A stretch of 64,000 bases of DNA, taken from the sequence record PZ019084.1; one strand, given 5' to 3'. The position numbers were made by a program, and so were the translations under genes. Below are positions 4,646 to 40,911 of this stretch, in pieces (position 1 is the stretch's first letter; each line of letters starts with the position of its first letter). Source of the DNA: a phage. The notes below the pieces were generated by a model. It did not search any database. It was given only the letters and a program-made list of their open reading frames with translations, and was not told the origin of the DNA.

Positions 4646-5661
4646 TGTGTTGCCTCTACATATAACTGATTTGCATATTGAATAAGTGCTTCGCGGTCAG
4701 AATCAGTGATGTCTGGAATTGTATTAATGTATTCTTCCATCAACGTCTGAAGAGATTGAACTTCAACTTCTTCACTATCATCTGACTCGATAGAGTTATC
4801 AATCTTTGACACAACTCGTAATGAATGCACAACTTTTTCTAGTTCAGATTCGAACTTCGTTAGATTTTTGTCTACCTCAGTTACTATAACACGTACTGAT
4901 AGATTTGTAAAATCTTTATAGTCAATTTTTCCCTTAAATGGATACTGAATTCGACGGTGCCAAGTAGTGTTGTTTGGAATAAATTCCATTCGTTCTGTTT
5001 CTGTATCAAACATCCAGAACCCGCGAGGGTCATTCTCGTCACCTGCAGTTAGTGTCCATGGTGTCCCAATATATCTGACGTTAGCAGCCTCAGAGATAGT
5101 ATGGAAGTGACCAGACCACACCTCTTTATAAGTCTTAAGGAAATCAGGTTCAAGACCGTGAGATTTCATTCCTTTATAAAAATAAAATCCATTCAGTTCC
5201 CAGTGACCAACACAAAAAGAAGCAGATGAAGTTTTGATGTGTTCAAGAATTTCACCAGTATTTTCTTCGCACATCCAAGGAATTAAATCAATCAAACATC
5301 CGTCAAAATCTACTGTAGTAGGCTTATCATATACTTTAACATTAGGATATTTAGCCAAAAGCTCAGTAGAAGCATTTGGAGTTAAAGTATTTTTAAAGTG
5401 CATATCATGGTTTCCTACAACAGTATGTAGGGTAATACCAGCATCATCAAGCATTTGAACTATTTCACGAGCGAACTCCATAGTTTTATGCGTGATTGCT
5501 TTTCGCACATCAAAAATATCGCCGTATTGAATCCATGTAGTAATTCCGTTTTTCTTAGAATATTCTATTGCTTGTTTAATTCCATCCAACTGAATGGATT
5601 GAACCCACTCATCATCGGCTTTAACACCTAAATGCCAATCACCTAAATTTAAAATTTTCAT
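4642..5661 (-). CDS. 47: Recombination endonuclease subunit gp47 (Mre11/SbcD-like phosphoesterase)
   Basis: 339 aa; calcineurin-like phosphoesterase motifs (MKILNLGDWHLG, GDIFD, GNHD, GH.H); same size as T4 gp47. Confidence 0.9.
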   Translation of the reverse strand: MKILNLGDWHLGVKADDEWVQSIQLDGIKQAIEYSKKNGITTWIQYGDIFDVRKAITHKTMEFAREIVQMLDDAGITLHTVVGNHDMHFKNTLTPNASTELLAKYPNVKVYDKPTTVDFDGCLIDLIPWMCEENTGEILEHIKTSSASFCVGHWELNGFYFYKGMKSHGLEPDFLKTYKEVWSGHFHTISEAANVRYIGTPWTLTAGDENDPRGFWMFDTETERMEFIPNNTTWHRRIQYPFKGKIDYKDFTNLSVRVIVTEVDKNLTKFESELEKVVHSLRVVSKIDNSIESDDSEEVEVQSLQTLMEEYINTIPDITDSDREALIQYANQLYVEATQ

Positions 5662-5840: not shown

Positions 5841-7040
5841 TTTTGTAATAATGTCAAACTGTTCTTTAAAGCAGAAGCTTGAATCTTGATGCTGATACAA
5901 AAATTCATAAGCTTTTTCGCGTTCACGGTCATAAAGAGCTCGGTCAGATGACAGTTCTTTAATACGCTCAAATGTTGATTCCATGTCATTTTCATCAAAC
6001 CAAACGATACCGCTATCATGAGAAATTAACGGAGTATTATCAACACGGAATTTTAAATTTTCGCCAGTAGATTTCCAAAATACTGGAATTGTTCCACATG
6101 CACCAAGCTCGAGATGAGTATATTCTAAAGAACGTTGTAGATATTTTTTGTCCAACTTACTCAGCTGATAACCAAATCCAGATTTACTCATGCGTTCAAG
6201 CATTTCGCTATTTACATAACGGTCAAGAATTTGCGTTGGCAAATTAGGAGCAATTTTAATTTGGTCTACTTGATGAAGACGATAATACTCGTATGGAATT
6301 CCTTTTTCTTTAATAGGAATGAACGCTGGAGAACGTTCCAGACCTTCCATAATAGTACTTAACCCTGCAGGTTTAAGATGTTTTTCGTGAAAATCAAACA
6401 TCTGATAAAAACCTTTCCATGTAGTAGTACGACCAATCCAACGGTTGATATTCATGTTAATTTCAGAAACATCTTTCCAGTAAGTTGATCGAACCTTCGC
6501 AATATCCATAGGAGGCTGAAAGTTGTATACAGTCGGTGCTTCTTCAATATCATCAAACAGTGAAACAGTTTCTGGATACCATTCTTTCATCAGAACTTTA
6601 TTAAAATCACCATTATCAGAATGACTAAAAATAACATCAGCTCGGCGAACAGTTTCTTCTAATCCCAAATTTCGACGCAAAGAAAGAGAAGAATGGTCAT
6701 GTTGATAAACTACAACACGAACCGAAGGTTTAATGTTATCAATAATTTTTTTATAGTTATTAATAGTGTCTTCTTCGACTGAAGTAGCAGGAACTGAATT
6801 GATAACTAGAATATCACAATCATTTACCAGCTTAAGCGTTTTATCGTATTCTTTTGCCAATAAAACCGGAATTGAAAATGATTTATAATCATGCGCGCAA
6901 TTACGTGTAAATGATTTATCTTTAGCATAAACCAAAGTTACTTCATGACCATTTTTAATAAACCAATCACGCTGCTCAAGAGAAAATTTAGTTACGCCAC
7001 AACCTTCAAGACCTCGAGCCATAAAAATGCATACTTTCAT
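5838..7040 (-). CDS. a-gt: DNA alpha-glucosyltransferase
   Basis: 400 aa, same as T4 AGT; N-terminus CIFMARGLEGCGVTKFSLEQRDWF matches remembered T4 AGT. Confidence 0.85.
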   Translation of the reverse strand: MKVCIFMARGLEGCGVTKFSLEQRDWFIKNGHEVTLVYAKDKSFTRNCAHDYKSFSIPVLLAKEYDKTLKLVNDCDILVINSVPATSVEEDTINNYKKIIDNIKPSVRVVVYQHDHSSLSLRRNLGLEETVRRADVIFSHSDNGDFNKVLMKEWYPETVSLFDDIEEAPTVYNFQPPMDIAKVRSTYWKDVSEINMNINRWIGRTTTWKGFYQMFDFHEKHLKPAGLSTIMEGLERSPAFIPIKEKGIPYEYYRLHQVDQIKIAPNLPTQILDRYVNSEMLERMSKSGFGYQLSKLDKKYLQRSLEYTHLELGACGTIPVFWKSTGENLKFRVDNTPLISHDSGIVWFDENDMESTFERIKELSSDRALYDREREKAYEFLYQHQDSSFCFKEQFDIITK

Positions 7041-32747: not shown

Positions 32748-33326
32748 TTAATTACCACGGGCTGCATTAGCAACGGCGTAAGCATACTGAACATTAGCGT
32801 CCTTAAACGTACCTTTAGAGGTATCTATTTCTGCCTTAAAGCCGCCTTTAGCCATAACATCAGCAAATTCTTTACGGAAGGCCATTGCATCAAGACCTTT
32901 CCATGATGATTTATGCTTGGCGAATTCAAGACCAGCGTAGTTGACAGCCTTAGCTAATTTATTATCAATAACCCATTTACCAGCTTTAGGCACAAACACC
33001 GGGCCTTTCTGTTTAGAGAATAGTTTTAAATTCCAGCGACGAAGGTCACCGTCAGCTTTAACAAAAGCTGCATCCAAGTTACTAGCAACAACATCTTGAA
33101 TATGGCCAAATTTAAGCCCATCAACTTCAATATTTAGATCAGTACGCCAGCGAAGTCCTTCCCAAGCGAAAGCTTTAAAGTCGGAAGCTTTTGTGGCTAG
33201 ATATCGTTCAAGTGGAGCAGTTTTAGGGTCAAAGCCGTTTCCACCACGATAGTTCCACTCGTCCTTATTAATGCCTTTGGCCTTTTCCGCAGAAGCTTCA
33301 GCGATAAATTCTTTATACGTTTTCAT
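32748..33326 (-). CDS. ipIII: Internal protein III
   Basis: 192 aa; N-terminal CTS MKTYKEFIAEA; position next to e and size match T4 IPIII. Confidence 0.75.
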   Translation of the reverse strand: MKTYKEFIAEASAEKAKGINKDEWNYRGGNGFDPKTAPLERYLATKASDFKAFAWEGLRWRTDLNIEVDGLKFGHIQDVVASNLDAAFVKADGDLRRWNLKLFSKQKGPVFVPKAGKWVIDNKLAKAVNYAGLEFAKHKSSWKGLDAMAFRKEFADVMAKGGFKAEIDTSKGTFKDANVQYAYAVANAARGN

Positions 33327-33361
33327 GTGTTTCCTTTAAATATTTTAATTAGTAACTATGA

Positions 33362-33393
33362 ATATACTATCACAGTTCTAGGAGAAAGTAAAC
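33362..33393 (-). promoter_or_regulatory. T4-type early promoter
   Basis: Plus strand atatactatcaca...aaagtaaacaac. Confidence 0.55.
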
Positions 33394-33397
33394 AACT

Positions 33398-33928
<531 letters not shown>

Positions 33929-34384
33929 TTAAAAGAGGCTGTTCATTATTCGGTAAAGTGAAGGACCCATCACATATTGCCATTGAGCACGAGGAATAAG
34001 AGCAAAAGCATCCATCTCTGGAATCATAACGCCATCTTTATTTTCAAAATAAGACTCGCAATAGCAATTTCTAAACATCTCATGCTCTACTGGAATCGTA
34101 TAATAAAATAACTGTAAGTCTTTATTACTAGAATATTTAAATACACCTAGGTCTTCTAGAAGGTCTGGATTATAATTGCTAAAACCGGTCTCTTCTAAGC
34201 ATTCTCTTCGTGCTGCATCTAGTGCGCTCAAATCAGAATTTTCTACACGGCCTTTTGGAATATCCCAGCGATGTGCCATCATTCCAGGCTTACGAGAACC
34301 AGTAACTCGTCCCATAAATAAATCTTTATCTTCTGTCATAAAGATAATACCAGCTGATAGTGTTTTCATTTTAATTTCCTGCAT
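33929..34384 (-). CDS. Nudix hydrolase
   Basis: 151 aa; Nudix box GRVENSDLSALDAARRECLEETG. Confidence 0.7.
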   Translation of the reverse strand: MQEIKMKTLSAGIIFMTEDKDLFMGRVTGSRKPGMMAHRWDIPKGRVENSDLSALDAARRECLEETGFSNYNPDLLEDLGVFKYSSNKDLQLFYYTIPVEHEMFRNCYCESYFENKDGVMIPEMDAFALIPRAQWQYVMGPSLYRIMNSLF

Positions 34385-34854
34385 TCAGTGATAAAGTTAT
34401 TTAAATTTTGAGCATATTTCTTTTCATCAAAAATCTTTTGCTGCCTACGTAAACGCCATGGCATTTCAATGAACACGCACCATATTCCTGATAGTACTGC
34501 TGCTGTAAAAATATTAACAAGTATGATTAAAAGAATCCAATCTCCCGTTCTGCCTACTGGACTTTCTCCAAAGAAGCAAAATACAAATGATGTCACAGGA
34601 AAACTAATAATATACCACAGAATCATAATCTTATCTGTGAACCAATCAGCGTTCGTTAATTTAGCGCGACCATTATGAATACACACGAATTTATCATCTG
34701 TTGCAGTAGATGGCTTAACTGGTTGATATCCCATTCTAAACTCCCTAATCAGCAAATTTTTCATATCTTCGGAACAGCCATTCCAGTCAACTCTATCAAC
34801 TGAAATGCCATCGTCCCCATCATCTAAATCATACCAGCGAGTTTTTAAAATCAT
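34366..34854 (-). CDS. Membrane protein
   Basis: 162 aa with two long hydrophobic helices. Confidence 0.4.
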   Translation of the reverse strand: MILKTRWYDLDDGDDGISVDRVDWNGCSEDMKNLLIREFRMGYQPVKPSTATDDKFVCIHNGRAKLTNADWFTDKIMILWYIISFPVTSFVFCFFGESPVGRTGDWILLIILVNIFTAAVLSGIWCVFIEMPWRLRRQQKIFDEKKYAQNLNNFITECRKLK

Positions 34855-35225
34855 TTAATTTTCCTACAATCACTCACAAACTCTTCCATTGATTCTTTTT
34901 CAATATAAGACATGTAGTTATTATATTCCTTTAATTGTATTTTGTAATCCTTTTTTCTTTGCCAATTTATTTTAAAATTATCATAATGAAAATATAACAT
35001 GGTACCAAAGAATGAAAATAATGAAATTGCTATAGTATAACGAAGTTCACTCCAAACTTCTATTATATCTACTATACCGCTGACATTACTGCGGATGTTT
35101 AAAATAATACAATCAATCATTAATCCAATAAGACTACCAGCAAGAGCTGCAGCCAACGCCACAGCAAAAATTAAAAATGACTCAGAAAAAGAATATTTAA
35201 CTTTATTTAGTTTTGGCTTTTGCAT
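34851..35225 (-). CDS. Membrane protein
   Basis: 124 aa with two hydrophobic helices. Confidence 0.4.
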   Translation of the reverse strand: MQKPKLNKVKYSFSESFLIFAVALAAALAGSLIGLMIDCIILNIRSNVSGIVDIIEVWSELRYTIAISLFSFFGTMLYFHYDNFKINWQRKKDYKIQLKEYNNYMSYIEKESMEEFVSDCRKIK

Positions 35226-35620
35226 CGTGATTCCTTAACAAATTTCATAATTTCATTAAATTCATGCATATCTAATTTAAGCTGGTGTTCCTTTTTAATC
35301 TTTTTACACTGAGCTTTCCATTCGCGTACACGTTTACGATAATGTCTTCCTTGATACCAATATCCTACCCAATTTACAGGTACCAATAAAAATGGAACTA
35401 CTAATGGAAGAATTAATACTAACAAAAATATTACGCCAGATTCAATATCAGTCATAAAGTCTATAACCATTCCAATAATCAATAGAATTACAAATGATAT
35501 AGCTGTCACAGGACCTATTAATACATCAGTAGGAATTAGCTGGCGCTTTAATTCATACTTCACAGGTTTACTTGGAAGGTATAGTGATGGCTTTAACATA
35601 TTCTCTACATTCCTTAACAA
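35207..35620 (-). CDS. Membrane protein
   Basis: 137 aa with two hydrophobic helices; start may be an internal Met. Confidence 0.4.
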   Translation of the reverse strand: MLRNVENMLKPSLYLPSKPVKYELKRQLIPTDVLIGPVTAISFVILLIIGMVIDFMTDIESGVIFLLVLILPLVVPFLLVPVNWVGYWYQGRHYRKRVREWKAQCKKIKKEHQLKLDMHEFNEIMKFVKESRCKSQN

Positions 35621-36176
35621 ATTTTTCTAATAATAAATCGCTTTCAAAACTAGGATTTTCCACGAATTTATCAAAAAGATCATCAACAATATTCAAGATA
35701 TTCCTTTTACTAAGAATACGTTTATTTTCATGTTTCGTTTCAGAATCAACTATAAGAGTAAAGAAATATTTCTTTCCCTGAAATTTTACTGTAGTATCAA
35801 TATAGAATAAATTTGACTTTTGTAAGTTACGTTTAAACCATGCGTCACTTAAACTATAAACACCGAGATAATCAAAATCGTCGTTTAAATAACATACTGT
35901 CCATTCAGGAGAAATGAAATCAGTAAATTCAACATCAAAATCACACGTCAATGAATGAATTGATTCAATACTGTTAATAAGTATTCCAGGGCGTATTAAA
36001 GACTTTTTACCTCTAGAAAATCTTCCAGAAAGACTTTCATCAGTTTCATATGAAGACCCCCAATAGTAATTACGTCCTTCTGCCATACGTTTAAGAGCAT
36101 TTAGTAATTGGTCTGGAACATCAACCTGTCTTTGGAACTCTTCAAACATTGAATTGAAATCACTTTGCATTTTCAT
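35568..36176 (-). CDS. Hypothetical protein
   Basis: 202 aa ORF. Confidence 0.4.
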   Translation of the reverse strand: MKMQSDFNSMFEEFQRQVDVPDQLLNALKRMAEGRNYYWGSSYETDESLSGRFSRGKKSLIRPGILINSIESIHSLTCDFDVEFTDFISPEWTVCYLNDDFDYLGVYSLSDAWFKRNLQKSNLFYIDTTVKFQGKKYFFTLIVDSETKHENKRILSKRNILNIVDDLFDKFVENPSFESDLLLEKFVKECREYVKAITIPSK

Positions 36177-36197
36177 TCCTATTTACTCCAAGTAATA

Positions 36198-36211
36198 GGG
36201 GCCGAAGCCCC
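36198..36211 (-). terminator. UUCG-loop GC hairpin
   Basis: Minus strand ggggcTTCGgcccc between two ORFs. Confidence 0.45.
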
Positions 36212-36217
36212 TTATCA

Positions 36218-36811
36218 TTATTTCAGAGAATTAATATATTCCTGAACATCGGCAGAGGTAGTTTCAACCCCGGAAATATTACCGTTAAAGGTTTCAACTC
36301 GAGCAAGGGTATCTTCAATATCAACCTTAGTCAGCGCTGCGATTTCAACTACATCATCGGCAGTACTAATTCCAAGGGCATTTGCTGCACGAGTTTCACG
36401 GATATATTCCAATTTAACTGCAAGTTCTTGGCGAGCATCATCTAATTCAACTACTTTCTTGGCGATTTCAATTCGCATTTCAGCATAACCGTCAGCTTTA
36501 GTAGTCAACTGCTCAGCTGTTCGACGATATAGTAAACCGAGTTTAGCATGCATTGTTACATCTTGACCTTCAGAAAGAAGTTTACGAATTTCACGCTCTT
36601 TTGATTCGGCTTGTCGATTCTTTTCGACAATAAGTTCACGAATACGTTTTTCTTCATTAATAGATTTAACAGAAGCAGTTTTTAGATCTTTAATTTTATC
36701 AAGCAGTTTTGCTGCTGCAGCAGTATACTGTTCTTCAACAGATAGATTTTTAGCCATAGCAGAACCAAGTTTAGTGCGAATAAACTCAACAATTTTCTTC
36801 AGTGTGTTCAT
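36218..36811 (-). CDS. Coiled-coil protein (PspA/IM30-like features; tentative)
   Basis: 197 aa, almost entirely helical/charged with alanine-rich heptads; resemblance to PspA family judged by eye only. Confidence 0.35.
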
Positions 36812-36854
36812 AGTATTTCCTTAGGTTAATTGAGATTTAAAATCCGTGGGAGTA

Positions 36855-37031
36855 TTATACTCCAAAGAGTTTATAAACTATTTCGACATCGCCTTTTGCT
36901 GCTTTATAACCTTCAGCCCAGGATACAACCGAATTTTTATCTGAAGATTCAAACTCTGGCATTGGGCTTTCACCAATATTCACGCAGTATGTTTCTTCAT
37001 TCTCGTCAAACCAAATAATTAAAGTAGTCAT
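36855..37031 (-). CDS. Small protein (58 aa), not in ORF track
   Basis: Minus-strand ATG at 37031 preceded by GGAGAAATAA RBS; translates MTTLIIWFDENEETYCVNIGESPMPEF... Confidence 0.3.
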   Translation of the reverse strand: MTTLIIWFDENEETYCVNIGESPMPEFESSDKNSVVSWAEGYKAAKGDVEIVYKLFGV

Positions 37032-37065
37032 TTATTTCTCCGTTTCTGTATTTGTTTTGATAAGT

Positions 37066-37095
37066 CTATAATAACACCATCCTTGGTGTTTGTAC
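37066..37095 (-). promoter_or_regulatory. Early promoter-like element with spacer stem-loop
   Basis: Plus strand ctataataacaccATCCTTggtgtttgtaca: hairpin cacca/tggtg around ATCCTT next to a TATTATAG -10-like box. Confidence 0.4.
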
Positions 37096-37105
37096 ATCAT
37101 TATTT

Positions 37106-37438
37106 TTAATTTTTCCAACTTAACAACTTGTAGTGTCCTTCATTCATACGTGGTTTATCCCAAGAAATACTAATATATGATTCACTGTCAATAGAAGTCG
37201 CCGGGTTTTTCTCTACCGTAAGACCTTCACTTTCCAGCCATTCAATAGTATTTGCGCATAAATCGGAAGAACACCTCATCGGAAACCGGCAAGATTTTTC
37301 ACCTTTAGATGCAGCGTTATACATCTTTTCTAAAATACGCTTTTGCACGTTTTTAAAAATAGTTTCAGCGGATTCTTCAGATTTTTTATTCAGTTCAATA
37401 TAAAGACTCATAACATTCTTCTCATTAATAGGGCTCAT
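37106..37438 (-). CDS. Hypothetical protein
   Basis: 110 aa ORF. Confidence 0.4.
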   Translation of the reverse strand: MSPINEKNVMSLYIELNKKSEESAETIFKNVQKRILEKMYNAASKGEKSCRFPMRCSSDLCANTIEWLESEGLTVEKNPATSIDSESYISISWDKPRMNEGHYKLLSWKN

Positions 37439-37466
37439 AATATCTCAATCATGAGCCTGTGTAAAC

Positions 37467-37742
37467 TTATTTCATATTATTGAAATATTCTTCTGCGATT
37501 TCGTCGTTATCATGGTAAACTTTAGAAGACAGTTTAACATAACCTTCAGCAGTGAACATGTTAATCACAACCTTTACAGTATACCACTGACCGTCTTCAT
37601 TACCCATTACTGCGTAAGTTTCAAACATCGGATGGTCAGGACCGATAACTTTAATATCATTCACTGTACGACCGAAATCTTCTGAAACGCATTTCATAAA
37701 GAAGTTGAACAGTTCGCCGTAATTATCCATTTTATTCTCCAA
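37467..37742 (-). CDS. Hypothetical protein
   Basis: 91 aa ORF downstream of an early promoter. Confidence 0.4.
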   Translation of the reverse strand: MENKMDNYGELFNFFMKCVSEDFGRTVNDIKVIGPDHPMFETYAVMGNEDGQWYTVKVVINMFTAEGYVKLSSKVYHDNDEIAEEYFNNMK

Positions 37743-38532: not shown

Positions 38533-38627
38533 TTAAAATCCTTGAAATAATTTATCAGTTGGTTATTAATTATTTATTACTTTGTTATTATCCGTAACAG
38601 CATTCTCTATGTGATTCAAACTAAAAA

Positions 38628-38650
38628 GCCCCAACCTTTCGGTCGGGGCT
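38628..38650 (-). terminator. Hairpin plus U-run (intrinsic terminator)
   Basis: Minus strand agccccgaccgaaaggttggggcTTTTTag. Confidence 0.6.
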
Positions 38651-38657
38651 AAGAATG

Positions 38658-39131
38658 TTATTTGATTTGTTTAGCAGACCAAATGCGGTCTTTAATAATT
38701 TTTTGGATGTCTTCAACATACTCAAGAGAGTGAACATGTGGATTATCTTTGAAACTATAAGCACGGGCTAACTTTTGGCCTTCGGTTTTGATTACTAAAA
38801 GCTCTTTAAGGATAGCTTCATATTTAGCGATAATTCCTTTAACGATATTTTTTTCTTGTGCAGCTTTAGGATCTGCTTTAGGAGCAGGTTTACCCGAAGC
38901 CTTTGCAAAAGCAGCACCAGTAGCAACTAAACTTTTCCAGGCCATACTAACCGCATTTCCCGTAAATCCTTCTGCTTTCATGTCGCGAGCAAATTGGAAT
39001 CGTGATTCGTCAGAAGCATCTTTATAGGAATATTTACCCGCTGCAATGGCTGCTTTTGCGACAGCTTGAATTTCGGTGCTAGATGCTTCATTTAACACCG
39101 CTTCATTTAAAAATTGAGCATATGATTTCAT
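38658..39131 (-). CDS. Candidate capsid-targeted internal protein (CTS-like N-terminus)
   Basis: 157 aa; N-terminus MKSYAQFLNEAVLNEA resembles the CTS; late promoter TATAAATA 40 nt upstream. Confidence 0.5.
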   Translation of the reverse strand: MKSYAQFLNEAVLNEASSTEIQAVAKAAIAAGKYSYKDASDESRFQFARDMKAEGFTGNAVSMAWKSLVATGAAFAKASGKPAPKADPKAAQEKNIVKGIIAKYEAILKELLVIKTEGQKLARAYSFKDNPHVHSLEYVEDIQKIIKDRIWSAKQIK

Positions 39132-39171: not shown

Positions 39172-39179
39172 TATTTATA
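39172..39179 (-). promoter_or_regulatory. Late promoter (TATAAATA)
   Basis: Plus strand tatttata = TATAAATA on coding strand, between terminator hairpin and ORF 38658-39131. Confidence 0.6.
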
Positions 39180-39186
39180 CTAAAAA

Positions 39187-39208
39187 GCCCCGACCTTTCG
39201 GTCGGGGC
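39187..39208 (-). terminator. Hairpin plus U-run (intrinsic terminator)
   Basis: Minus strand gccccgaccgaaaggtcggggcTTTTTa, downstream of the stable-RNA/tRNA region. Confidence 0.6.
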
Positions 39209-39258
39209 TAAGCCTTGCGGCAACCTTGTCGGGGTTCCACCTGCTAAGGCAAGTGTTT

Positions 39259-39889: not shown

Positions 39890-39965
39890 TGGTCGAGGCA
39901 GTAGGGATCGAACCTACGACCTAGGACTTAGAAGGTCCTTGCTCTTCCTTCTGAGCTATGCCCCG
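39890..39965 (-). tRNA. tRNA-Arg (anticodon TCT)
   Basis: Minus strand folds as cloverleaf: acceptor CGGGGCA/TGCCTCG, anticodon loop CTTCTAA, T-arm GGTTCGATCC, CCA encoded. Confidence 0.8.
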
Positions 39966-40046
39966 TAATTGGGGTGACCGATGGGAGTCGAACCCATGAC
40001 TACGAGAATCACAATCTCGAGTTCTACCAACTGAACTACGGCCACA
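39966..40046 (-). tRNA. tRNA-His (anticodon GTG)
   Basis: Acceptor GTGGCCG/CGGTCAC, D-arm GTTCAGTTGGTAGAAC, anticodon loop TTGTGAT, T-arm GGGTTCGACTCCC, CCA encoded; no encoded G-1. The tRNA itself is approximately 39971-40046. Confidence 0.6.
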
Positions 40047-40159
40047 TTAATACCTACTCCAACAATCAAGATGTCTTCACACGAAATTAAGAGAAGAGTG
40101 ATCAGTTCAACCCCTATAATCGCGTCAAGTAGATATTAATGTGACAGTTGTCACAAATT

Positions 40160-40234
40160 TGGCGGACGTGATAGGATTCGAACCTATAACCAATCGCTTA
40201 ACAGGCGATCGCTCTGCCATTGAGCTACACATCC
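40160..40234 (-). tRNA. tRNA-Asn (anticodon GTT)
   Basis: Acceptor GGATGTG/CACGTCC, anticodon stem ATCGC/GCGAT with loop CTGTTAA, T-arm AGGTTCGAATCCT, CCA encoded. Confidence 0.7.
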
Positions 40235-40238
40235 AAAT

Positions 40239-40325
40239 TGGTGGGGAGTGATGGAGTCGAACCACCCGAGTCGCAATGACAATGGATTTACAGTCCACAC
40301 CGCTACCTCTACGGGATAACTCCCC
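40239..40325 (-). tRNA. tRNA-Tyr (anticodon GTA), long variable arm
   Basis: Acceptor GGGGAGT/ACTCCCC, anticodon loop CTGTAAA, long variable arm, T-arm GGTGGTTCGACTCCATC, CCA encoded. Confidence 0.65.
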
Positions 40326-40338
40326 TTAATTCTTAATT

Positions 40339-40413
40339 TGGTGGCCCTGGGTGGAATTGAACCACCATCTGGCGATTATGAGTCGCTTGCTTGAACCTTC
40401 CAGCTACAGGGCC
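40339..40413 (-). tRNA. tRNA with CAT anticodon (Ile, as in T4, or Met)
   Basis: Acceptor GGCCCTG/CAGGGCC, anticodon loop CTCATAA, T-arm GGTGGTTCAATTCCACC, CCA encoded; position matches T4 tRNA-Ile. Confidence 0.65.
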
Positions 40414-40414
40414 T

Positions 40415-40490
40415 TGGTGCTGATTGACGGAATCGAACCGCCGACCTTCTCATTACAAGTGAGTTGCTCTACCTACTGAGCTAAATCAGC
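40415..40490 (-). tRNA. tRNA-Thr (anticodon TGT)
   Basis: Acceptor GCTGATT/AATCAGC, D-arm GCTCAGTAGGTAGAGC, anticodon loop CTTGTAA, T-arm GGCGGTTCGATTCCGTC, CCA encoded. Confidence 0.8.
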
Positions 40491-40495
40491 AAAAC

Positions 40496-40585
40496 TGGCG
40501 GAGGCGATAGGATTTGAACCTATGAGTCGCCGGAGCGACTGCCGGTTTTCAAGACCGGTGCATTAAACCACTCTGCCACGCCTCC
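40496..40585 (-). tRNA. tRNA-Ser (anticodon TGA), long variable arm
   Basis: Acceptor GGAGGCG/CGCCTCC, anticodon stem CCGGT/ACCGG with loop CTTGAAA, long variable arm, T-arm AGGTTCAAATCCT. Confidence 0.8.
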
Positions 40586-40587
40586 AG

Positions 40588-40661
40588 TCTCCATACAAGG
40601 ATTTGAACCTTGGACCTCCTGATCCCAAATCAGGCGCTCTACCAAACTGAGCTACACGGAG
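40588..40661 (-). tRNA. tRNA-Pro (anticodon TGG), CCA not encoded
   Basis: Acceptor CTCCGTG/TATGGAG, anticodon stem CCTGA/TCAGG with loop TTTGGGA, T-arm AAGGTTCAAATCCTT. Confidence 0.75.
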
Positions 40662-40671
40662 TAAATTAAAT

Positions 40672-40745
<74 letters not shown>

Positions 40746-40750
40746 AAATT

Positions 40751-40837
40751 TGGTGCGAGAAGTGGGACTCGAACCCACAAGGAAATCATTCCGCAGCATT
40801 TTAAGTGCTGTGCCTTTACCAATTTGACCATTCTCGC
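40751..40837 (-). tRNA. tRNA-Leu (anticodon TAA), long variable arm
   Basis: Acceptor GCGAGAA/TTCTCGC, anticodon loop CTTAAAA, long variable arm, T-arm GGGTTCGAGTCCC, CCA encoded. Confidence 0.8.
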
Positions 40838-40838
40838 G

Positions 40839-40911
40839 CTGGGAATAAAGGACTTGAACCTTTGCATCCTGGAATCAAAATCCAGTGCCTTACCAACTTG
40901 GCTAATTCCCA
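40839..40911 (-). tRNA. tRNA-Gln (anticodon TTG), CCA not encoded
   Basis: Acceptor TGGGAAT/ATTCCCA, anticodon stem CTGGA/TCCAG with loop TTTTGAT, T-arm AAGGTTCAAGTCCTT. Confidence 0.75.

Follow-up and report, generated by a model that had tools for sequence, protein, structure and literature searches.

What do the small genes e.2, e.3, e.4, e.5 and e.6 of T4-like phages do, and do they act together? T4 is the reference lytic phage, and e.2-e.6 are still annotated as hypothetical in it, with e.2-e.4 already named as membrane proteins. We examined this block in a 64,000-nucleotide stretch of a T4-like phage (Tequatrovirus; record PZ019084.1; hereafter, the window), in which all five genes lie on the minus strand. 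In order of transcription, they are:

36218..36811, minus strand: e.6, 197 aa, phrog_1203 (E = 1.1e-87)
35568..36176, minus strand: e.5, 202 aa, soluble, phrog_2607
35207..35599, minus strand: e.4, 130 aa from the ATG at 35599, two-TM hairpin, phrog_2604
35207-35620, minus strand: e.4 as the listed ORF, with a TTG at 35620 as a possible alternative start
34851..35225, minus strand: e.3, 124 aa, two-TM hairpin, phrog_2330
34366..34854, minus strand: e.2, 162 aa, intact form, phrog_2203 ('membrane protein')

A sequence-only reading of the window had described three small membrane genes followed by a coiled-coil gene, located between the Nudix gene and the internal-protein genes. The ORFs are present at the coordinates it gave, all on the minus strand, and their order holds on window coordinates, but transcription starts from the e.6 side, with the membrane genes downstream, and the soluble 202-residue e.5 (35568-36176), which that reading did not mention, intervenes. 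The described location needs a similar amendment, as three small ORFs stand between e.6 and the internal-protein genes. Because the block recurs at ≥90% identity in more than 450 phage records, and because mass spectrometry of T4-infected cells detected all five proteins (PMC9697503 supplement), these are real genes and not chance ORFs. The block is transcribed early: according to the same supplement, its RNA is early and its protein builds up in the middle period, with e.4 protein detected early in infection, and we found no late promoter inside the block.

We found e.6 to be largely helical, with about 82% of its residues in helices in an AlphaFold2 (AF2) model that resolves the following parts:

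36746-36805, minus strand: predicted helix alpha0, residues 3-22
36572-36739, minus strand: arm 1 of a helical hairpin, residues 25-80
36377-36556, minus strand: arm 2 of the helical hairpin, residues 86-145
36221-36373, minus strand: C-terminal part, residues 147-197, unlike PspA and ending in a conserved Y-[IL]-x-S-L-K

The hairpin, modeled at a pLDDT of about 90, is the long alpha1-alpha2/3 hairpin that forms the core fold by which ESCRT-III membership is judged. At the level of sequence and model, alpha0 aligns to alpha0 of Vipp1 as a putative membrane-binding helix, with a hydrophobic moment of 0.45 (compared to 0.61 for Vipp1) and a net charge of +4. Beyond the hairpin, residues 147-162 are of low confidence, and short helices are predicted at residues 165-175 and 186-196. 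Kyte-Doolittle and Wimley-White octanol windows revealed no transmembrane segment in e.6. The description of this protein as almost entirely alanine-rich helix therefore stands as regards helix and overstates alanine, which at 11.7% equals Glu, with Lys and Leu at 10.2% each.

By eye, the same protein had been likened to PspA/IM30, and profile comparisons bore this likeness out. Upon searching the PDB (hmmsearch) with a profile of 41 e.6-family sequences (A3), we obtained Vipp1 and PspA as the top matches at E = 7.6e-5 to 2.4e-3 (Vipp1 8qfv at 7.6e-5, 9eom at 2e-4, 7o3w at 4e-4, and PspA/Vipp1 6zvr at 2.4e-3), matches that carry a high compositional bias (score 24.6, bias 16.5). Vipp1/PspA accounted for eight of the nine best distinct PDB sequences, in a database that contains thousands of coiled coils, and the alignment runs in register from residue 1 (1-146 to 1-147). 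E. coli PspA itself was matched by this profile at E = 1.3 only. The deeper profile was needed: one built from the closer family (A1), whose search closed on 45 representatives, all of about 195-205 aa, reached Vipp1 at E = 1.4-3.4. Aligning A3 with a Vipp1 alignment by hhalign yielded a probability of 94.2% (P = 1.2e-7, 136 columns) and a score of 54.1, whereas reversed profiles scored 15-17 and none of 30 heptad-block shuffles exceeded 28.3. The profile-profile comparison hence supports placing the coiled-coil protein with PspA/IM30 and not with an unrelated family.

The Pfam family PspA_IM30 (PF04012) was matched by 5 of the 41 e.6-family members, with a best E of 8.9e-10. It was the most-matched Pfam family among them, tied on count with two coiled-coil families, with a far stronger best E-value. 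An Ackermannviridae-type member (P0065) scored 35.1 bits, above the Pfam gathering score of 33.9 bits, and clearly belongs with e.6 (E = 1.5e-21 against the e.6 profile; 24.5% identity to T4 e.6 over 97% of its length). The e.6 of the window, searched alone, did not match PF04012 even at E ≤ 1. In a Foldseek search of BFVD with e.6, the first annotated matches outside the family were a phage PspA/IM30 protein (E = 2e-3) and Snf7 (E = 3.3e-3). All alignments to PspA/Vipp1 end at about residue 140-146, and no similarity of residues 147-197 to alpha4/alpha5 of PspA was detected. Together, these comparisons support the view that e.6 is a divergent, phage-borne relative of PspA/IM30/Vipp1 in the ESCRT-III superfamily, with a different C-terminal third.

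The assignment has a precedent. In 2022, phrog_1203, the PHROG that contains e.6, was tied to PspA by HHpred, and its member Gp_125 of Salmonella phage SeF3a (Kuttervirus) was proposed to be a phage-encoded PspA and an anti-Abi factor (PMC9409062). Gp_125 and e.6 thus share a PHROG, a profile-based PspA assignment and the idea of proton-motive-force protection. As that PspA assignment was published, ours is an extension and not a discovery. Where it deals with Gp_125, that paper presents the PspA protein as something peculiar to a few Kutterviruses, with no mention of T4 e.6, whereas the family found here comprises about 1100 records, down to 32% identity, across Straboviridae and Ackermannviridae. 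We found no published experiment on e.6 in the literature.

Compared with PspA/IM30 (Vipp1; PF04012), e.6 has the same size of about 200 aa, an N-terminal amphipathic helix, a long alpha1-alpha2/3 hairpin in an alignment that matches position by position between residue 1 and about 140 with profile-profile support, and membrane-protein genes as neighbours, comparable to PspBC or LiaI. It differs in that the window protein alone stays below the Pfam threshold, in that its last ~50 residues are unlike alpha4/alpha5 and have their own conserved end, and in being phage-encoded, early-transcribed and not sigma-54/PspF-regulated. In structure, e.6 is matched best outside its own family by the PspA/IM30 protein of Acinetobacter phage vB_AbaM_ME3 and Snf7 proteins of giant viruses, which are likewise virus-encoded members of the superfamily; they share 14-16% identity with e.6 at weak Foldseek E-values (2e-3 and 3e-3) and, unlike e.6, are recognised directly by family models.

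An e.5-family ORF lies directly downstream of e.6 in 40 of 51 loci, a conserved pairing that is new here. Neither hydrophobicity scale (Kyte-Doolittle, Wimley-White) indicated a transmembrane segment in e.5, and no fold match was obtained for it, at an AF2 pLDDT of only 54.

Downstream of e.5, the claim that each small protein has two hydrophobic helices proved correct for e.2, e.3 and e.4 on both Kyte-Doolittle and Wimley-White octanol scales, on which NudE and lysozyme showed no TM-type segments:

35468-35524, minus strand: e.4 TM1, residues 26-44 (130-aa numbering)
35378-35434, minus strand: e.4 TM2, residues 56-74 (130-aa numbering)
35100-35177, minus strand: e.3 TM1, residues 17-42, by hydrophobicity
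34989-35045, minus strand: e.3 TM2, residues 61-79, by hydrophobicity
first 75 aa of e.2, minus strand: N-terminal domain, predicted cytoplasmic, preceding the two-TM hairpin
34570-34626, minus strand: e.2 TM1, residues 77-95, by hydrophobicity
34483-34539, minus strand: e.2 TM2, residues 106-124, by hydrophobicity

TM2 of e.3 is weaker on Kyte-Doolittle (1.31) and clear on Wimley-White (-10 kcal/mol). As the connecting loops are poor and the termini rich in K/R, an N-in/C-in hairpin fits all three proteins. The true start of e.4, annotated in T4 as a 'predicted membrane protein', is probably the ATG at 35599, which gives 130 aa as in Shfl2 and T4. By hhalign, e.3 and e.4 align over 57 columns (48.7%, P = 1.8e-4; reversed control, 0.6%) and are probably paralogues, judging from this profile alignment. 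We limit the paralogy to these two because e.2 aligns to them in 12-15 residues that cover a C-terminal motif alone. In T4 itself, e.2 is shortened to 102 aa, after TM1.

No similarity of e.2-e.5 to PspB, PspC or LiaI was found in Pfam and NCBIfam, and none of e.2-e.4 to holins, T4 Imm or Sp in Pfam, PHROGs, NCBIfam and PADLOC; when all five proteins were compared with NCBIfam and PADLOC, nothing significant came up. The PHROGs matches of e.2-e.4 are labeled function-unknown or 'membrane protein', and e.2 is filed under 'moron, auxiliary metabolic gene and host takeover'. A small two-TM architecture is compatible with holins, Imm or Sp and does not define them. Like PspB/PspC and LiaI, the anchors of PspA/LiaH, e.2-e.4 are small, sit in the inner membrane, have cytoplasmic tails and are encoded beside a gene of the PspA type, but e.5 and e.2-e.4 are unrelated in sequence to PspB, PspC, PspD and LiaI, and the two-helix hairpins of e.2-e.4 have a C-terminal motif of their own.

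This motif, L-E-x-F-I-x-E-C-R-K, is common to e.5 and many small membrane proteins, and its sharing between them is new here. In the block, it occurs as:

35604-35621, minus strand: KFVKECRE, C-terminal motif of e.5
35225-35242, minus strand: FVKESR, C-terminal motif of e.4, at the end of a basic, predicted cytoplasmic tail
34863-34880, minus strand: FVSDCR, C-terminal motif of e.3
34378-34395, minus strand: FITECR, C-terminal motif of e.2

We found it in 133 of 1690 same-strand ORFs, compared to 2 of 828 opposite-strand control ORFs. The motif codons in the window overlap the AAGGA or AGGA Shine-Dalgarno sequence of the next gene, and 79% of motif carriers end within 15 nt of the next ORF or overlap it, as would be expected if the motif were a side effect of nucleic-acid signals where genes adjoin, be it the Shine-Dalgarno sequence and translational coupling of the next gene or linkers for gene-shuffling recombination. 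We consider this origin very improbable, since the Shine-Dalgarno sequence shifts among the motif codons from gene to gene, the motif lies 5-15 residues before the stop codon in e.5 proteins, and the hydrophobic positions (-3, 0, +1 and +4, counted from the Phe of the motif) are spaced as in an amphipathic helix. Across 113 distinct tails, moreover, the motif Arg is encoded by CGT, AGA, AGG, CGA and CGC, and the Cys by TGC and TGT; this use of both CGN and AGR codons for Arg and both codons for Cys points to selection on the protein. On codon usage and the shifting Shine-Dalgarno position, an RNA- or DNA-level origin was largely rejected.

Whether the membrane proteins belong functionally with e.6 is less clear-cut, and support for treating the four genes as a single functional cluster is only indirect, coming from the conserved e.6-e.5 pairing and from the motif common to e.5 and e.2-e.4. 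In Straboviridae, e.6 is paired with e.5 and motif-bearing membrane proteins; in Ackermannviridae and Pseudotevenvirus, no motif protein accompanies e.6. Membrane genes near e.6 vary in number from 0 to 4 and also in position between genera, and some genera, Karamvirus among them, have their motif-bearing TM paralogues at a distance of about 2.5 kb from e.6. Such variation, with the truncation of e.2 in T4, speaks against a tight link between e.6 and the membrane genes. Together with the PHROGs class of e.2, it would suit e.2-e.4 acting independently of e.6, whether in superinfection exclusion or immunity (as with T4 Imm and Sp), in modulating lysis timing, or as other host-takeover 'morons' gathered in a hyperplastic region, with the shared helix targeting a host factor. 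We regard such independence as possible though rather doubtful, because e.5, whose linkage to e.6 is tight, also ends in this motif, because a membrane protein follows e.6 even in Ackermannviridae, and because e.2-e.4 lack the above-mentioned similarity to holins, Imm and Sp. Even less probable is that e.6 itself is a generic long-helix or coiled-coil protein, such as a scaffold, a BAR-like curvature protein or a virion component, whose likeness to PspA is a convergent helical hairpin. The reversed and heptad-shuffled controls far below the real score, the alignment in register from residue 1 and orthologues above the Pfam gathering score all argue against it. Being transcribed early, accumulating as protein in the middle period and lacking a late promoter, e.6 is unlikely to be part of the virion; the labels 'tail completion protein' and 'host specificity protein' borne by homologues were ruled out on the same grounds of timing and promoter.

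Our main reading, which we hold at a probability of about 0.55, is that the block combines a PspA-type e.6, its partner e.5 and the N-in/C-in two-helix proteins e.2-e.4 to maintain the membrane and the proton-motive force in the infected cell. We hypothesize that alpha0 attaches e.6 to the inner membrane on its cytoplasmic side, as in PspA and Vipp1, and that e.6 polymerises there, stabilising or repairing the membrane. This action would keep the proton-motive force of the infected cell, and thereby could guard against premature lysis or membrane-depolarising abortive-infection systems. In this reading, e.5 is a conserved soluble partner of e.6, and e.2-e.4 are inner-membrane proteins that share with e.5 a short amphipathic helix, placed at the end of their cytoplasmic tails. 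Speculatively, this helix may be a common docking peptide through which soluble and membrane proteins are joined to a single partner, with e.6 or e.5 as the most economical choice, analogous to the anchoring of PspA/LiaH by PspB/PspC or LiaI. A bolder and distinctly tentative version is that e.6, e.5 and the motif-tailed membrane proteins form a phage Psp-like membrane-maintenance system, in which the motif helix is a portable docking tag that recruits adaptors, both soluble and membrane-embedded, to a PspA-type polymer and the membrane is kept energised, for example against depolarising abortive-infection effectors or during lysis inhibition, while host psp is barely induced. Superinfection exclusion, lysis timing, general maintenance of the membrane and proton-motive force, and anti-abortive-infection activity may each be the role of the block and stand side by side as undistinguished candidates.

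Placing e.6 in the PspA/Vipp1/ESCRT-III superfamily gives a concrete, testable role to a widely conserved early gene of about 1100 genomes. T4 induces host psp weakly (PMC12795941), and we propose that the phage supplies its own 'phage shock protein' for a tight inner membrane. This would bear on how the proton-motive force lasts until lysis, on sustained lysis inhibition and on resistance to membrane-depolarising defences. If the motif is a docking peptide, it would furthermore link a group of small orphan membrane proteins with the function of e.6.

One further element lies between e.6 and e.5:

36197..36212, minus strand: GC-rich hairpin with a UUCG tetraloop (AGGGGC-UUCG-GCCCCU), 6 nt past the e.6 stop, with no U tract following

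Its minimum free energy is -13.1 kcal/mol, and as this corresponds to z = -1.6 relative to shuffled sequences, the fold alone is not significant. Rather than a classical terminator, it is probably an intercistronic mRNA-stabilising hairpin or an attenuator.

Using profile comparisons, hydropathy scales and gene-neighbourhood surveys, we confirmed, with corrections, the sequence-only reading of small membrane proteins followed by a long coiled-coil protein. The window derives from a T4-like phage, with a GC content of 32-38% and minus-strand genes in this part, transcribed in the order e.6, e.5, e.4, e.3, e.2, nudE, e. By megablast, 33300-37500 matched 657 phage records, 453 of them with at least 80% query coverage and nearly all Tequatrovirus. 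Four of the five genes e.2-e.6 had been described in the sequence-only reading, and e.5 (35568-36176) had been left out. We regard all five as real genes because their early RNA and protein were detected in T4 infection (PMC9697503 supplement).

Genes of the block and the C-terminal motif carried by four of them; lysozyme and NudE identified from the ORF list and Pfam scan, e.2-e.6 from records using T4 gene names.
33398-33892, minus strand, T4 lysozyme gene e
33929-34384, minus strand, Nudix hydrolase NudE
34366-34854, minus strand, e.2
34378-34395, minus strand, motif of e.2
34851-35225, minus strand, e.3
34863-34880, minus strand, motif of e.3
35207-35599/35620, minus strand, e.4
35225-35242, minus strand, motif of e.4
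35568-36176, minus strand, e.5
35604-35621, minus strand, motif of e.5
36218-36811, minus strand, e.6

Two hydrophobic helices had been noted in each small membrane protein, and formal scoring with Kyte-Doolittle 19-residue windows and Wimley-White octanol free energies, which agreed with each other, found two of transmembrane (TM) length in e.2 (residues 77-95 and 106-124), e.3 (17-42 and 61-79) and e.4 (26-44 and 56-74). Neither scale gave a TM-length hydrophobic segment in e.5, e.6, NudE or lysozyme. In e.2-e.4 a short, K/R-poor loop joins the helices and K/R-rich termini flank them, a charge pattern that fits a predicted N-in/C-in hairpin. The membrane predictions themselves are already known from the T4 annotation, where e.2, e.3 and e.4 are each a 'predicted membrane protein' and e.6 a 'conserved hypothetical protein'. 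Comparison of e.3 with e.4 by hhalign (48.7%, P = 1.8e-4, 57 columns; reversed control 0.6%) supports their being paralogues from TM2 to the C-terminus, and the similarity of e.2 and e.5 is limited to a motif of 12-15 residues. Intact e.2 has 162 aa in the window and many relatives; in T4 (5947-6255 of its locus) it is shortened to 102 aa, ending right behind the first TM helix, with the tail on a separate 63-aa ORF, so that laboratory T4 can dispense with e.2.

The likeness of e.6 to PspA/IM30, proposed by eye, gained support from profile searches. Alone, window e.6 gave no match to PF04012, the Pfam PspA_IM30 family, at E <= 1 in a single-sequence Pfam scan, and its sole PHROGs match was phrog_1203, labelled 'unknown function'. 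A profile from close homologues reached Vipp1 in the PDB at E = 1.4-3.4 only, yet in register. With a deeper profile of 41 sequences, distant members included, Vipp1/PspA made up 8 of the 9 best PDB sequences (E = 7.6e-5 to 2.4e-3), residues 1-146 being aligned to 1-147. When the 41 members were searched one by one, PF04012 was matched by five, the top count, which two coiled-coil families shared; by E-value it was far ahead of every other Pfam family, with 8.9e-10 for its best match. One Ackermannviridae-type member, P0065 (nearest relatives in Ackermannviridae, for instance phages SJ3 and UPM 2146), matched the e.6 profile at E = 1.5e-21 and T4 e.6 with 24.5% identity across 97% of its own length, and scored 35.1 bits against PF04012, above the Pfam gathering score of 33.9. 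The e.6 family extends to 1100 phage records, with identity down to 32%, in Straboviridae and beyond; it is wide but closed: among 1.84 billion representatives the profile recovered only 45 members, all of ~195-205 aa.

In an AlphaFold2 model (pLDDT 74.8), e.6 is ~82% helical, with helices at 3-22, 25-80 and 86-145, a predicted layout like that of PspA alpha0, alpha1 and alpha2/3, and past residue 145 a low-confidence linker and two short helices. The helicity claimed in the sequence-only reading thus stands; 'alanine-rich' was overstated, because Ala (11.7%) equals Glu (11.7%), with Lys and Leu at 10.2% each. The first of these helices is cationic (net charge +4) and amphipathic (hydrophobic moment 0.45), and the C-terminus carries a conserved Y-[IL]-x-S-L-K.

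Downstream of e.6, across 10 annotated loci and 40 viral contigs in which ORFs were called, we found a conserved partner. An ORF begins 30-60 nt downstream of e.6 in all 10 annotated loci, and iterative HMM search assigned the ORF directly after e.6 to the e.5 family in 40 of 51 loci. After it, most Straboviridae encode 1-4 small proteins, each with 1-2 TM helices. In Ackermannviridae the position after e.6 is taken by a protein of 185-191 aa whose TM helix is N-terminal. As e.5 homologues are tagged PF26876 in the protein database, a family model for e.5 exists. The new elements are the conserved e.6-e.5 pairing and a C-terminal motif family, in which e.2-e.5 share the ending F-[IV]-x-[ED]-[CS]-R. 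Six-frame translation of the 64-kb window gave five occurrences of this pattern, four of them 3-11 residues from the stops of these consecutive genes. Over all loci, the motif lies within the last 25 residues of 133 of 1690 same-strand ORFs, versus 2 of 828 on the opposite strand. In nearly all Straboviridae loci the protein at the e.5 position carries it, as do many small 2-TM proteins and, a few kb away, some small soluble ones; besides e.2-e.5, it is C-terminal in 111 distinct soluble and 1-2-TM proteins of T4-like phages. The extended consensus, [LIVF]-[END]-x-F-[IV]-x-[EY]-C-R-[KEGR], is hydrophobic at -3, 0, +1 and +4, positions that form one face of a predicted short amphipathic helix. 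We found no description of the motif in the literature, which could not be queried by motif sequence.

A rival reading, which we consider unlikely, makes the motif a side effect of signals at gene junctions. It does overlap the Shine-Dalgarno of the next gene, but at codons that differ from gene to gene. Among 113 distinct tails, the Arg codons are CGT, AGA, AGG, CGA or CGC and the Cys codons TGC or TGT, which shows that selection acts on the protein. Also unlikely, in our view, is the reading of e.6 as a generic helical protein. In hhalign, the deeper e.6 profile matched an alignment built from 23 Vipp1 proteins of cyanobacteria with a probability of 94.2% (score 54.1, P = 1.2e-7) over 136 columns, beginning at residue 1, and controls for coiled-coil bias scored 15.0 and 16.8 with reversed profiles and a mean of 16.7 (maximum 28.3) with 30 heptad-block column shuffles. 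Our conclusion is that e.6 and PspA/Vipp1 share a homologous alpha0-alpha3 core, and that the C-terminal third of e.6 is divergent.

The PspA assignment, supported by this formal analysis, extends a published idea and is not new, because it was already made for phrog_1203, to which both e.6 and Gp_125 of Kuttervirus SeF3a belong. In the text of PMC9409062 (2022) that treats Gp_125, the protein is called homologous to PspA from a pdb70 comparison, phage-encoded PspA is proposed as a possible counter to abortive infection that keeps the proton-motive force from being lost, and the gene is taken to occur in only a few Kutterviruses, T4 e.6 being unmentioned there. Phage homologues were absent from the ESCRT-III/PspA superfamily reviews searched, and further literature searches gave nothing on T4-like phages.

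With the PspA/Vipp1 homology of e.6, the two-helix features of e.2-e.4, the e.6-e.5 pair, the protein-level motif and early expression established, we suggest that e.6 would stabilise the inner membrane of the infected cell, by analogy with PspA/Vipp1, for which alpha0-mediated membrane binding, polymerisation and protection against proton leakage are established in the literature, including references quoted in PMC12795941. The rationale is that T4 activates the host psp operon only weakly (PMC12795941). More speculatively, the motif might be a docking helix through which e.6, or another common partner, is joined to e.5 and the membrane proteins. Alternatively, e.2-e.4 may have a role unconnected with e.6, such as exclusion or the timing of lysis.

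Database labels for e.6 homologues include 'host specificity protein', 'tail completion protein' and 'putative 22.0 kDa protein', and the first two look like propagated mis-annotations, as they conflict with early expression and PspA homology. RB43 e.6 (5193-5486 of its locus) is annotated at 97 aa, and tblastn aligns query residues 52-197 from upstream of the annotated start; probably the true start is further upstream, or else the gene has been disrupted.

Right after the e.6 stop codon lies a hairpin, GGGGC-UUCG-GCCCC (36197-36212, minus strand), without a U tract and with a folding energy not significant against shuffles (z = -1.6). Hairpins of this C(UUCG)G type are known from intercistronic regions of T4. 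The late-promoter consensus TATAAATA is present in two copies directly upstream of e (33906-33913 and 33919-33926, minus strand) and in a third, at 39172, upstream of an internal-protein gene; none lies inside e.2-e.6, in agreement with their early RNA class in T4 (PMC9697503 supplement). Four internal-protein-like ORFs (33326, 32641, 38532 and 39131, minus strand) begin with the capsid-targeting sequence MK[TS]Y.[EQ]F[IL].EA. Its core, EFIxE, contains (L/I)-x-E, the pattern recognised by the T4 prohead protease, and resembles F-I-x-E-C-R, which may be coincidence. The tRNA cluster at 39890-40911 (minus strand) holds 11 genes (Arg, His, Asn, Tyr, Met, Thr, Ser, Pro, Gly, Leu, Gln); the T4 record lists 8 over the corresponding stretch. 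Two near-identical terminator-like hairpins, 39186-39209 and 38627-38650 (minus strand; AGCCCCGACCGAAAGGTCGGGGCT / ...GGTTGGGGCT, then TTTTAG), flank the internal-protein-like gene 38658-39131, one upstream and one just past its stop codon, which suggests a repeated cassette boundary.
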